Shown one piece after another: positions 9,759 through 15,608 of a stretch of DNA of 20,870 bases. Numbering within the stretch: position 1 is the stretch's first letter; each line of letters starts with the position of its first letter. Under the pieces are notes generated by a model that saw only the letters and a list, made by a program, of their open reading frames with translations, made no database searches and was not told the origin of the DNA. This DNA is from an uncultured Nitrososphaerota archaeon (GTDB lineage: Archaea; Asgardarchaeota; Njordarchaeia; Njordarchaeales; Panguiarchaeaceae), in contig CAZWPQ010000035.1 of NCBI GenBank assembly GCA_964636085.1, positions 412-21,281 on the forward strand, written 5' to 3'. Both the position numbers and the translations under genes were made by a program.

Positions 9759-10226
9759 CTAATGGGATCCGATTAGTTCTTCGAAGGCGTCCCTTAAGAA
9801 ATCGATCAGTCTTTGTATTCCATCCCTGTCTAGGAAATATTGTGTTACGCCGTTCGGGTCTTCTCCTTTTTTAAGAATGCCAATGTAAATTGCATCCTTA
9901 ATCCAATTTCTTACGATTTTGGCGTTTCTATGGATGACAAGTTCTCTGAAGTAGAATTTTCCTAGTTCTAATACTTTAGCGAACAATCCTCCGTATCCTC
10001 CGATAACCCTCATTACTATGTCCATTTTGTTCTCGAATAAATGAGCCCAGCCTTTCCATTCCAGGCTGATTATGTCTATATTTTTCTCTTCCATATTTGG
10101 AATGGAGATATATTTTGCTAGTTCTTCATCGTCTATACCCGCAAAGGTAAAATATTTTATCCTGTCAGCGAGCTCATTTGGCCATAGCTTATATAGCATA
10201 TATAGCAGTATGATGATAACTATCAT
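9759..10226 (-). CDS. Hypothetical protein with C-terminal winged-helix-like domain
   Basis: The likely start is ATG 10226, which forms an ATGA overlap with the upstream stop, rather than 10292. 'VRNWIKDAIYIGILKKGEDPNGVTQYFLDRDG' has the helix-G-hydrophobic-wing pattern. Confidence 0.65.
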   Translation of the reverse strand: MIVIIILLYMLYKLWPNELADRIKYFTFAGIDDEELAKYISIPNMEEKNIDIISLEWKGWAHLFENKMDIVMRVIGGYGGLFAKVLELGKFYFRELVIHRNAKIVRNWIKDAIYIGILKKGEDPNGVTQYFLDRDGIQRLIDFLRDAFEELIGSH

Positions 10227-10477
10227 AAGCGCTCCAAGCATTCTTCGAGCACCCCAATTATTTTCTTCTTCAATTCTCTTAGTCCATCCCAATCCACAGT
10301 TATTTCATCACCAGAAATTCTGAGTATTCCAAGCGCTACCCCCCTCTCGATCCATATTTTTCCTCTCGGATCACTATAGAGTTGTTTGAGTTTTGATGGA
10401 GACCTAAGGATACTCGGCAGGTCTTCACCATACATTGTAAAGAATAGCATTATGTTGCTCAGTTCCTCAGCGTCCAT
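10223..10477 (-). CDS. Small winged-helix-like protein, 84 aa
   Basis: GGAGG RBS directly after the upstream stop. 'WIERGVALGILRISGDEITVDWDGL' fits a wHTH recognition helix plus wing. Confidence 0.65.
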   Translation of the reverse strand: MDAEELSNIMLFFTMYGEDLPSILRSPSKLKQLYSDPRGKIWIERGVALGILRISGDEITVDWDGLRELKKKIIGVLEECLERL

Positions 10478-10486
10478 TATGCCTCC

Positions 10487-11143
10487 CTATTCGATTATCA
10501 TGAGTTCCTCATGATGAGGGATAAAGGATGCCAGTAGTATTAGTATTATGTATATTAGTAGCCCAAGAGATGCTATGTTGGGCCCATAACTAATGTATCC
10601 AAGTGCATAAACAACGATGCCCCATAGGAGCCCTATTATTGTTTCAGGGTTTTTCATTATGTGGAATATGAATATGAATTTGAGATCCTCCATGCTTGGC
10701 ATGCCGAATGTAAATATGCCTATAATTAGCCATGCAATAAGTATGGCCAACCTAATATTTGCGGTATACAAAACATATATCAACAACTTCTGGAGCGCGA
10801 GTACGAATAATAAAGACACAATCATGGGGCTAAGCAATGTAATGTATATCTTGTGTGATTGCTTTTTGTATATGTCACTACTAAGAATAATGCCTGAGGA
10901 TGATCCCTCTGATGCTATGTCTAGCCGTAATATTTCGTATACTCGTAGTCGAAAAATTTTGGCGAACAAGTAATGGGATGCCATATGAACTAGTAAACCT
11001 GGGAAAAACAGGAGAGATAAGAATTTATACATGCCGCTCCAGCTATATTGGAGTATTAATACTATAATCCACCCGAATAATAGTAGTGGCCAGCTAAGCG
11101 CCATCCTTATTATCCATCCTCCAACGAACCCAATGATATCCAT
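10487..11143 (-). CDS. Multi-pass membrane protein of the M50-like/zincin (PGxxxHExxH ... PSxxD) type, with the catalytic Glu replaced by Met
   Basis: About six TM segments, with motifs FFPGLLVHMASHYLFAK, LLSP and MPSMEDL. The likely start is ATG 11143 after a GGTGGT RBS; GTG 11152 is the alternative. Confidence 0.7.
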   Translation of the reverse strand: MDIIGFVGGWIIRMALSWPLLLFGWIIVLILQYSWSGMYKFLSLLFFPGLLVHMASHYLFAKIFRLRVYEILRLDIASEGSSSGIILSSDIYKKQSHKIYITLLSPMIVSLLFVLALQKLLIYVLYTANIRLAILIAWLIIGIFTFGMPSMEDLKFIFIFHIMKNPETIIGLLWGIVVYALGYISYGPNIASLGLLIYIILILLASFIPHHEELMIIE

Positions 11144-11144
11144 A

Positions 11145-13111: not shown

Positions 13112-14013
13112 TATAGCTCCCAGAATGGAGTAAGGTTCTCCTCGATGATCACCACGTGATTCATAAAGTTTATCTTCCTTATCAGTTTTCCATCCATGAT
13201 TATATTAGGGAAATTGAAGCCTGCGGCATTGGGACACACAACCAGAGTGTTCGCTCTATACCTTAGGATCTCTTCGACCCATTTCCATGCTCTAGGAACA
13301 TCTACAACCAACCAGACATCAAACATAGACGCGATGATCAGCGAACCGACCTGAAGAGATCTTGGAAGTCCACTAAAATCTATATAGTTTTTCCTCCCAA
13401 ACTCCTCTTCCTCAGAAAGAACTTTCCACGATCTAAAATCCTTGAGAACATCCATCGCCATCTCCTCGTCCTCCATATATTCCTTGCTTGATAGGGATGC
13501 TAGAACTGTATCTTTTCTAGATTTTAGAAGCTTGGCTATTCTCTCTGCTATCTGATGCTTTTTTGTTGGACTTGAAGGAATTGGAAGCCCAGTACATTCC
13601 CTATAGTTCGTTGGGGGAGAATCTCCCCGATAGTCGACCCATAATACTGGGTTTCTTGGAATGGTTGCTCCATATTCTCTTCTTGTTGTGGCTATTGGGT
13701 ATGAGGCGTCGACATGAAGTATTTGTTTGTGTTCTCCAACCCCGATTGGAATAGGGTTCCTCATCTTGTATGCCATTTCTGCCAAGATCTTTATGGAGAA
13801 TAGGGCTGGTATGGGTTTTTTTGTTGTTTTTATGCCCAGTCTATTAAGGGATCTTATTAATTGTCTATCTCCATCTATTTCTACTACTGCCTTTACCAGT
13901 CTTTCTTGGGTTTTCCCGTATGTTGTGATCCTTATTTTTGCTCCGAACTGTTTTGCTGTGTTTAGATATATCCTGTTTATTGGTTTTGCCAGTGATTTAG
14001 GGTGAATATACAT
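13111..14013 (-). CDS. Hypothetical protein, probable inactivated HerA/VirB4/FtsK-like ATPase domain
   Basis: Motifs appear in HerA-like order: IPIGVGEHKQILHVD, VLWVDYRGD, YIDFSGLP, WLVVDVPRAW and EILRYRANTLVV. There is no GxxGxGKT and no DE Walker B. Confidence 0.5.
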   Translation of the reverse strand: MYIHPKSLAKPINRIYLNTAKQFGAKIRITTYGKTQERLVKAVVEIDGDRQLIRSLNRLGIKTTKKPIPALFSIKILAEMAYKMRNPIPIGVGEHKQILHVDASYPIATTRREYGATIPRNPVLWVDYRGDSPPTNYRECTGLPIPSSPTKKHQIAERIAKLLKSRKDTVLASLSSKEYMEDEEMAMDVLKDFRSWKVLSEEEEFGRKNYIDFSGLPRSLQVGSLIIASMFDVWLVVDVPRAWKWVEEILRYRANTLVVCPNAAGFNFPNIIMDGKLIRKINFMNHVVIIEENLTPFWEL

Positions 14014-14023
14014 GTGTCATCAC

Positions 14024-14740
14024 TCATAGTGATAGGAGTAGGTCTCTTATTTGCTCTGTGTTTTCGGGTGGTTTCACTCTGCTGAATGCGTTGATAATGT
14101 TGTCTGGATTGGCTGATGGCAAAATCTCGATGATGAAGAAGTATTGTCCCTCTGGAATGACTACAAGATCCATTCCATCCACGCTTAATGTGGTTTTTGT
14201 TCCTATCATGAATAGATTATGTGCAAACGCGGGGTCTTTGCTTATTTTGTCCGTTAGTTTGGTGCGTCCTATACTGTATATGCAAGTTAAACCTATTTTC
14301 CTATCTATTTTGTATATTACTAGGTTCGCTATGCCGAACCTTGAAAGGAGGTATTTTCCTACTTCTTCGTCGATTTCCACATTGCCTATTTCGATGCTTT
14401 TGAGTTGTGATACGTAATCTGCCACTACTGGAGTGTTGACAATGTATCCTCTTCCTGCTTTTTGTATGAAGCCTGCTTGCATTAAGGCTTTTGCCTCGGT
14501 TTCCGGTATGTTGTATATGATTGTGTATTTTGCAAGCCTTGCTATTGTTTCGGGGCTTATTACTATATATGTTGCACTGGTTGGGTGCGGTGTCTCTATT
14601 TCTCTGCGAATTGCCTTTATTCTCTCTTTTAGTATGTTTCTGTTCCTTATTTTGTCTAGTATGAATAATGCTATGTGTGGCAACAATATCCCTATTATGA
14701 ATCCTAGGACGCAATACAGTATTATCTGCTCCAAACTCAT
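14024..14740 (-). CDS. Membrane-anchored protein: N-terminal TM, central winged-helix-like segment, C-terminal longin/uDENN-like domain
   Basis: N-terminal TM IILYCVLGFIIGILLPHIALFIL, then a 'ALMQAGFIQKAGRGYIVN' wing. 'LVIYKIDRKIGLTCIYS' resembles the hhhxxFDxxxGPxhhxx longin hairpin and is followed by a helix, beta strands and a helix. GGGGGA RBS. Confidence 0.6.
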   Translation of the reverse strand: MSLEQIILYCVLGFIIGILLPHIALFILDKIRNRNILKERIKAIRREIETPHPTSATYIVISPETIARLAKYTIIYNIPETEAKALMQAGFIQKAGRGYIVNTPVVADYVSQLKSIEIGNVEIDEEVGKYLLSRFGIANLVIYKIDRKIGLTCIYSIGRTKLTDKISKDPAFAHNLFMIGTKTTLSVDGMDLVVIPEGQYFFIIEILPSANPDNIINAFSRVKPPENTEQIRDLLLSL

Positions 14741-14753
14741 GATTTTCCCCCAA

Positions 14754-15608
14754 TTAGCTCCATAGCTGATCTCTGTATTTCTCTATATACCGCCGCCCAG
14801 CATCTCTGCATCTTTCTAGTACATAACTTAGTTTGTTTTTGAAGCCGAATACTCCAGCAATTACTCTTCTATTGTCTGTGTTGATTGATATAACTGCTAT
14901 GTTTTTTGTTGAAAAATACCCGGCGAATGCCTGTATTCTATCTATTTTTTCTAGGCTTAGGAGTATGTCATTAATGTGTATTATGATCTTATTGTTGTCG
15001 ATCCTTGCTGGGCTGTAGAGGATTGGGAGTATGTGGCCGTCGTAGATAAATGCTAATTCGGCTTTCGTTATTCTCCGCAGGGTCTCTGCGATATCCCCTG
15101 AGGCTTCTTTGGCTCCATGAAGAATGTTTAGTAGTGAAGACATACTGAATGGGTCATAAATGCTTGTTCCTAATGTCGTTATTCTATATTTCGTGAAATC
15201 CTCTCTATCGAAGATTATTGTCTTAAGTTTCTCAGGTGGAATGGCTCCATCGATATCTTGTTTGTGTGCTAGTAGTATTATCTGTGGTTTTTGCTGGCAG
15301 TATTTTTCAATCATTTTTCTAATATATTTCCAGTATAACTTCACATCTTCGAATCTTTGGCAATCAGCCGCATCCACTACTAGCACAATTTTGCTTGCTG
15401 GCGGAAAGAATACTTGGTAGAGTTTTTCATTGTACCTTAATTTCTGTTGTCCAGGGAATATTTCAATTCTAAAGTCCCCAACTATGTATGCTTCTAGCCC
15501 ATTACTCATTCTCGTATTTTTTGCTTTTTCCACATCTAGCGTCTCTAGGTATACCTTAATTGAGGATTTTCCAGCTCTGTCGAGTCCGACGAAGATTATA
15601 AGCATCAT
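14754..15608 (-). CDS. Rag/Gtr-like (Arf-related) small GTPase with a C-terminal roadblock/longin-like domain
   Basis: G1 GLDRAGKSS, G3-like EIFPGQ, G4 HKQD and G5 TSIYD. The C-terminal ~115 aa show helix / AFIYDGHILPILY hairpin / helix / strands / helix. The likely start is ATG 15608 or 15605 after GGGGGAG; TTG 15623 is the alternative. Confidence 0.88.
   Translation of the reverse strand: MMLIIFVGLDRAGKSSIKVYLETLDVEKAKNTRMSNGLEAYIVGDFRIEIFPGQQKLRYNEKLYQVFFPPASKIVLVVDAADCQRFEDVKLYWKYIRKMIEKYCQQKPQIILLAHKQDIDGAIPPEKLKTIIFDREDFTKYRITTLGTSIYDPFSMSSLLNILHGAKEASGDIAETLRRITKAELAFIYDGHILPILYSPARIDNNKIIIHINDILLSLEKIDRIQAFAGYFSTKNIAVISINTDNRRVIAGVFGFKNKLSYVLERCRDAGRRYIEKYRDQLWS

Follow-up and report, generated by a model that had tools for sequence, protein, structure and literature searches.

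A conserved gene module of the Njordarchaeales brings membrane and surface proteins together with recombination genes

Introduction

Two chromosomal systems of hyperthermophilic archaea, Ced of the Sulfolobales and Ted of the Thermoproteales, pair a HerA/VirB4-fold protein with membrane proteins, and their genes either cluster with recombination genes or are regulated together with them (PMC9905601, PMC11823120). The clustering with recombination genes also applies to the Ted import genes (PMC9905601). Transformation of Methanococcus requires OB-fold and TctA-like genes (PMC10133366). In bacteria, the late competence genes (ComEA, ComEC, ComFA, DprA and RecA) encode a surface protein, a membrane part, a superfamily 2 (SF2) ATPase and a recombinase. 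Here we describe a gene module that resembles these systems and was found in a 20,870-nucleotide (nt) stretch of DNA (hereafter the window; assembly GCA_964636085.1, contig CAZWPQ010000035.1, positions 412 to 21,281) from a member of the Njordarchaeales, which belong to the Asgard archaea (PMC12411855). The host metagenome-assembled genome comprises 2.4 Mb and is 83% complete with 2% contamination. The module in the window consists of eight open reading frames (ORFs) on the minus strand, g1 to g8, that occupy positions 15608..9759.

The module shares with Ced and Ted the chromosomal location, the HerA/VirB4-fold protein accompanied by membrane proteins, the hyperthermophilic host and the link to recombination genes. 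In contrast to these systems, its HerA/VirB4-fold protein g3 is shrunken and has no Walker A motif, and thus does not qualify as an active CedB or TedB. Its protein with multiple transmembrane (TM) helices appears to be M50-like rather than VirB6/CedA-like, and the operon has no small two-TM pilin. The module adds to the Ced/Ted set a short XPD, a second RadA, a DUF790 nuclease, probable TM-anchored winged helix-turn-helix (wHTH) proteins and a Rag-like GTPase. The set of functions of the late competence genes recurs in the module. However, the operon lacks a ComEC-type channel, and the SF2 enzyme of the module belongs to the XPD family and has an iron-sulfur (Fe-S) cluster. One relative links g5 to an operon of the OB-fold/TctA type known from Methanococcus, but TctA is patchy and mostly unlinked. 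Within the incomplete coverage of our literature search, we found no description of this gene combination. A preliminary description of the locus had recognised no named system in it, and indeed no described system matched. The make-up of the module appears to be new in comparison with published systems, and we infer its function.

Results

Conservation of the module in the order

The g3 gene was found in 13 of the 14 genomes of the order and in 0 of the 287 other Asgard genomes searched; the single genome of the order without it is a 0.9-Mb, 77% complete bin. Genes g2, g6 and g8 are each present in 13/14 genomes and g4 in 12/14. The distance between g3 and g6 does not exceed about 3.5 kb in any of the 13 genomes, and three or more of the genes g3 to g6 share one locus in 10 genomes. 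A RadA paralogue is linked to the module in 9/13 genomes, and a DUF790 gene comes after g8 in five. In genome G001, all eight genes together with RadA, DUF790 and the surface protein lie within one 12-kb stretch. A locus labelled Korarchaeota, which could not be placed taxonomically beyond this depositor's label, carries g8-g3-g4-g6 and RadA-g5. In many genomes, g3 and g5 are translationally coupled to membrane genes. The core of the module is the dead HerA-type protein, the surface protein, the XPD and the pseudo-peptidase; it is accompanied by a second RadA, winged-helix proteins, a DUF790 nuclease and a large surface protein.

The genome that carries the window also holds a second copy of the module. 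Its contig C18 encodes, in this order, a large surface protein, g3-g4-g5-g6, an inserted ATPase with a toxin-antitoxin pair, the RadA paralogue, g7, g8 and the DUF790 nuclease. The RadA paralogue of C18 (L001:7472-8563) keeps Walker A and Walker B and has a long charged insertion after Walker A. The canonical RadA is encoded on contig C21, and the housekeeping HerA genes are also separate. Pairs of g1 and g2 stand alone on contigs C12 and C5 of the same genome. Together, the second copy and these standalone pairs mean that the operon of the window is one arrangement of a larger kit. We rejected contamination as the origin of the second copy, because contamination is 2% and several other genomes hold 2-4 copies. 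Published work describes a second clade of RadA in Heimdall-, Gerd- and Njordarchaea, and there, too, the paralogue occurs besides the canonical gene in the same genomes (PMC12722695). The passages available from that work give a phylogeny, with no gene neighbourhood or role. The module resembles XPB-Bax1 in having a nuclease of the DUF790 (Bax1) family nearby, but its DUF790 paralogue comes after the RadA and wHTH genes and not after XPB.

The preliminary description had called for a comparison of gene neighbourhoods, and the homologues proved to be syntenic across the order. The eight genes that it describes do not form a fixed unit: the gene order is shuffled, the GTPase is accessory, and the sister loci are larger. 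It had also proposed a membrane-associated set for the handling of nucleic acids, with defence or nucleoid tethering among the possible roles. As a conserved and undescribed set this proposal stands. The second RadA, the DUF790 nuclease and the large surface protein of the sister loci indicate recombination rather than defence or nucleoid tethering.

Other genes were recorded near module genes. One sub-lineage has a solo Cas1 gene inserted between g4 and g5, and in genome G006 such a gene adjoins the RadA paralogue (L048:10562-11518; L134:2621-3577; L070:5806-6870); no CRISPR array was found near these copies. In genome G011, OB-fold, TctA, YdjM and Ras genes stand directly before g5 on one strand (L044:5418-11113), and in another locus of this genome a DUF790 gene and a gene for an XPB-like helicase come after g6-g3 (L058:147-3610). 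The genome of the window also has an OB-fold/TctA/YdjM operon, similar to the Methanococcus transformation genes, on contig C20 (15825-19394). Viral contigs gave no match with the patterns used.

The HerA/VirB4-fold protein and the short XPD

The g3 gene (13111..14013) encodes a core protein of 300 amino acids (aa) with a shrunken HerA/VirB4/FtsK fold. It has no known family match in Pfam or NCBIfam. The g3 profile gave nothing useful against the sequences of the PDB, and the Atlas feature search was blank. The fold was recognised from an AlphaFold2 (AF2) model with a mean confidence (pLDDT) of 91. In a Foldseek search this model matched VirB4/TrwK (E 1.8e-5), HerA (5e-5) and also FtsK; structural alignment gave Z scores of 11.5 for DndH, 10.4 for VirB4 and 9.5 for HerA. 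Walker A and Walker B are missing from the protein. The P-loop Walker A is absent from 28/28 aligned family members, where the single regular-expression match falls elsewhere. Thus the degenerate HerA/VirB4-like gene named in the preliminary description is borne out by the fold match and the loss of Walker A. Judged by its motifs, g3 cannot hydrolyse ATP. About 33 relatives of g3 remain at 50% clustering. A standalone gene of 157 aa on contig C2 of the same genome (L060:9121-9594) matches only the N-terminal half of g3, and comparable short forms were seen elsewhere (P0008, P0046 and P0047). None of the nine HerA-family genes of the genome matches g3 in sequence. The genome also encodes two unusual HerA/VirB4-type ATPases of 1114 aa (C40:9-3353) and 742 aa (C6:46232-48460) with intact Walker A, both unlinked to the module.

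The core protein g5 (485 aa; 11145..12602) is a short paralogue of XPD/DinG. It shares with archaeal XPD the motifs of the helicase (Walker A, DEAH and motif VI) and the four cysteines of the Fe-S cluster, all of which are intact and invariant in 17 homologues. In contrast to archaeal XPD, it is about 150 aa shorter, with a reduced Arch region, and falls in a separate clade. The Arch region is about 90 aa shorter than in the two full-length XPDs of the same genome, and the Q motif is not evident. In the phylogeny, the short XPDs form their own clade with 100/100 support, apart from the housekeeping XPDs. We therefore rejected the assignment of g5 as the housekeeping archaeal XPD, given the shortened Arch and the separate clade. 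A check for a separate canonical XPD, suggested earlier, gave a clear answer: two full-length housekeeping XPDs are encoded elsewhere in the genome. We also rejected the type IV-A CasDinG as an identity for g5, because the PADLOC model scores the housekeeping XPDs higher (295 and 285 bits) than g5 (156 bits); linkage to csf genes and a CRISPR array was not seen either. Mutations of the XPD Arch abolish unwinding and spare the ATPase activity that depends on single-stranded DNA (ssDNA) (PMC10450177). Because its Arch is reduced, g5 probably tracks along single strands more than it unwinds duplexes. Two other loci (L120:4744-10655 and L021) hold a cluster of a PolB gene, a g6 homologue and an XPD of 626 aa. 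Together with an XPD from genome G037, the latter stands apart from the housekeeping XPDs and nearest to the short clade, on long branches.

The pseudo-peptidase g6 and related loci in other Asgard archaea

The core membrane protein g6 (218 aa; 10487..11143) is a five-TM pseudo-peptidase of the M50/M50B/DUF3267 type, as seen from Atlas features and structure. Its Atlas neighbours carry M50, M50B and DUF3267 at modest scores (TM 0.45-0.57). All aligned Njordarchaeales copies retain HxxxH and have lost the catalytic Glu, while in three distant Asgard homologues, one of which matches DUF3267, the HExxH motif is intact.

Homologues of g6 occur in 64 other Asgard genomes. We compared 20 g6 loci from 11 families with 20 control loci, taken mostly from the same contigs, and scored them only against references belonging to other families. 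Because the loci are not independent, we give counts and no P value. RadA-like genes were found at 11/20 g6 loci and 0/20 control loci, and SF2 helicases at 12/20 and 0/20, respectively. Giant anchored surface proteins were found at 13/20 g6 loci against 3/20 controls. Counted by family, a DNA enzyme is present in 9/11 families at g6 loci and in 1/8 at control loci. Pfam calls at the Asgard g6 loci include Hef, a Hel308-like helicase, RadB-like ATPases, a FEN1 paralogue, PolB and TFIIB-like proteins. The profiles of g3, g2, g4 and g8 found no homologue in the 20 other Asgard g6 loci, and the g6 neighbours there do not align with these proteins. Judged by this distribution, g6 is a marker for related loci across Asgard archaea.

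The surface protein and the winged-helix proteins

The small surface protein g4 (169 aa; 12602..13111) belongs to the core. By hydropathy and alignment it has a signal-like N-terminus, a soluble domain and a C-terminal TM anchor; its profile found nothing useful among PDB sequences. Pfam and NCBIfam gave no match for g2, g4, g6, g7 or g8, as was the case for g3. The g8 protein (155-160 aa; 9759..10226) has an N-terminal TM helix and a probable winged helix. Its profile matches in the PDB are weak and mostly to wHTH proteins of the TrmB, Lrs14 and ArsR type (best E 0.024). The 84-aa g7 (10223..10477) is a probable winged helix and a distant g8 paralogue, whose profile matches the g8 family weakly (E 0.002); in sister loci it stands between the RadA paralogue and g8. 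Both proteins are thus probably winged helices, and g8 is probably membrane-anchored.

The GTPase-longin pair

The g1 gene (14754..15608) encodes a 284-aa Rag/Arf-like small GTPase with a roadblock-type C-terminal domain, an accessory member of the module. It matches Pfam Arf (6.5e-14), and its profile matches the Asgard protein LokiRagO (8yl2) over positions 3-219, into the tail, with an E of 1.6e-12. The g1 alignment shows invariant G1 and G4 motifs and a G3 motif without its Asp. The 238-aa g2 (14024..14740) gave nothing useful in a PDB sequence search with its profile. Its AF2 model (pLDDT 86) shows, from the N-terminus on, a long TM helix, a small domain that resembles a wHTH and a longin domain. 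The longin domain aligns with that of VAMP7 (Z 8.3, root-mean-square deviation 2.9, 101 aligned residues), and the top rows of this comparison are mostly longin or roadblock folds. The middle domain aligns with the g8 family (hhalign probability 72). Known Asgard Rag-like GTPases with roadblock or longin partners, such as LokiRagO, are similar in that a GTPase-roadblock fusion (probable in g1) adjoins a longin-domain protein. They differ from the pair described here, where the longin domain is fused to a TM helix and a wHTH domain and where the pair sits among DNA-recombination genes.

The g1 gene adjoins core genes, in differing orders, in genomes G000, G001, G003 (two loci) and G005, the last of which belongs to another family. 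In a third family, seven genomes (66-91% complete) keep the core, but no member of the g1 clade was found in them; there, g2 comes after a giant surface protein instead. Judged by this distribution, the GTPase is accessory and belongs to two families. The term "GTPase-switched" in the preliminary description therefore cannot hold as a general feature of the module.

The operon and its surroundings

The eight genes are closely spaced. The gaps are 13 nt between g1 and g2, 10 nt between g2 and g3, 1 nt between g5 and g6 (g6 ATG at 11143) and 9 nt between g6 and g7. A TAATG overlap joins g3 to g4 and likewise g4 to g5, and an ATGA overlap joins g7 to g8, whose ATG lies at 10226 with an alternative at 10241. 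G-rich motifs resembling ribosome-binding sites precede most starts. Thus, the coupled arrangement reported earlier was confirmed by the ORF and junction check. The domain order given with it agrees for most genes with the fold or motif tests of g1 to g6, while the wHTH assignment of g7 and g8 is weakly supported. A TATA-like box (TTTAAATA; 15639..15646, minus strand) lies 31-38 nt upstream of g1. In DNA of 38% GC such a box is, on its own, a weak sign of a promoter and no proof of a single transcript. A sigma-70 promoter scan, whose model is unsuited to archaea, gave a chance-level result, and inspection by eye of 14 leaders revealed no evident shared upstream motif.

Upstream of the operon, a divergent gene on the plus strand (15710..16216) encodes a small DNA-binding protein with a weakly VapB-antitoxin-like N-terminus. 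A homologue is divergently placed upstream of g1 in G003 as well, and the protein is a candidate regulator of the operon. It shares a DNA-binding-like N-terminus and the type of its C-terminal motif with a second small protein (16546-16935, plus strand), and the genes of both lie between the operon and a large surface gene. The latter (17007..20051, plus strand) encodes a 1014-aa membrane-anchored protein with immunoglobulin-like (Ig) domains (Pfam Big_7), a probable member of the module as an adhesin or receptor. It has 72% identity to the product of the gene immediately upstream of the g3 paralogue on C18, and its homologues adjoin core genes in G001, G003, G004 and G005. Further on, the product of 20138-20731 (plus strand) resembles an IS607-type serine resolvase, with a helix-turn-helix and a YARVSS motif, and has a paralogue on contig C26. 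On the other side, 169 nt downstream of g8, an orphan gene of 162 aa (9101-9589, minus strand) has no homologue in its own genome or in the fetched loci. The operon at 3629-9100 shows no synteny with the module in relatives. Within this region, a 774-aa anchored protein with prenyltransferase-like repeats is encoded on the plus strand (4710-7034), and its N-terminal part resembles a giant protein adjoining a g6 homologue in locus L130 (E 7e-12).

Discussion

We suggest, with a probability of roughly 45%, that this chromosomal module couples DNA arriving at the cell envelope, through uptake or cell-cell contact, to homologous recombination. By analogy, it may work like Ced and Ted or like the late competence genes. 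From the observed genes, folds, motif states and linkage, we infer the following steps. The large Ig protein and g4 would form an outer layer for contact with, or capture of, DNA or a partner cell. The membrane protein g6 and the dead HerA/VirB4-fold g3 would serve as a non-catalytic membrane scaffold. The Arch-reduced g5 would be the sole intact ATP motor of the core and, comparable to ComFA in bacterial competence, would translocate 5'-3' along ssDNA more than it would unwind duplexes. The TM-anchored winged helices g8 and g7 may keep DNA, or the second RadA, at the membrane. The second RadA and the DUF790 nuclease, known in this genome from the C18 copy, would process, trim and recombine the strand. 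In two families the Rag-like GTPase with its membrane longin partner could be an optional switch or localiser. The OB-fold/TctA pair is a candidate DNA channel in some genomes only. The full form of this proposal is doubtful in our own estimate. It would make the module a DNA-uptake or cell-contact exchange machine of new architecture, in which the pseudo-peptidase of M50 type, the scaffold with the dead HerA/VirB4 fold and the XPD motor with its reduced Arch feed a dedicated second RadA. In part of the lineage a eukaryote-like pair of Rag GTPase and longin protein at the membrane would act as its switch, and the module would be a compact Njordarchaeal form of an Asgard-wide recombination island.

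Several observations weigh against the coupling of arriving DNA to recombination. No VirB6/CedA- or ComEC-like channel was recognised in the operon; its only multi-TM protein is M50-like, as judged without a direct comparison with CedA or a genome-wide CedA search. No small two-TM VirB2-like pilin was found by hydropathy among the eight ORFs, the other loci not having been searched. TctA was found in only 5/14 genomes and adjoins g5 in one. The g3 protein is without Walker A, and we could link it to no active partner. The window copy itself is without RadA and DUF790. The genes vary in order and strand, and many genomes have the module in separate pieces, which would also be expected of a regulon. 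All of the support is guilt by association among related genomes, whose loci are not independent.

It is possible, though rather unlikely, that the module is a membrane-tethered platform for the repair or recombination of the cell's own chromosome, after damage or for the resolution of copies at division, and that no DNA crosses the envelope. The linkage to RadA, XPD and DUF790 would be the same. Tethering suits the TM-wHTH proteins, and no channel was found in the operon. However, such a platform leaves the link to surface proteins unexplained, with g4 in the core and giant Ig proteins at 13/20 distant loci, and the housekeeping functions of XPD, RadA and HerA have genes of their own elsewhere. 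The module could also be a co-regulated stress regulon instead of one machine. Here an envelope signalling arm (surface receptor, pseudo-peptidase, GTPase-longin switch and membrane-bound wHTH regulators) would control spare repair enzymes. This is consistent with the usual role of M50-family proteins as signalling proteases, with the shuffled order, the divergent sub-operons and split loci, with the weak wHTH matches to transcription regulators, and with the TFIIB-like genes near g6 in other Asgard loci. We nevertheless consider a regulon unlikely, because g6 has lost the catalytic Glu, and because g3 and g5 are, in many genomes, translationally coupled to the membrane genes, as would be expected of subunits more than of targets.

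HerA and DinG folds are found in defence systems, and the module could accordingly sense DNA at the membrane as an anti-virus or anti-plasmid defence or as a helper of CRISPR adaptation. The solo Cas1 copies described above and the toxin-antitoxin genes that often adjoin the module would agree with this. Such a role is very unlikely in our estimate: PADLOC gave no specific match (its type IV DinG model favours housekeeping XPDs), the Cas1 copies have no CRISPR array nearby, and the module is near-universal in the order, unlike patchy defence genes. Finally, the standalone g1-g2 pairs on C12 and C5 could suggest that an unrelated GTPase pair was joined by chance to a mobile element or to the remains of a gene block. 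Synteny has already largely refuted this, and we give it hardly any credence: g1 adjoins core genes in several genomes and in a second family, in differing orders, the motifs are conserved across 13 genomes, and no viral contig matched the patterns used.

The module bears on how Asgard archaea acquire and recombine DNA, on the role of the second RadA and on that of the numerous genes for Rag-like GTPases, roadblock and longin proteins in these archaea. It would link a GTPase-longin switch of eukaryotic type with membrane-associated recombination. It is a small set of proteins fit for expression and testing, and g6 offers a marker gene with which related loci may be located across the phylum.

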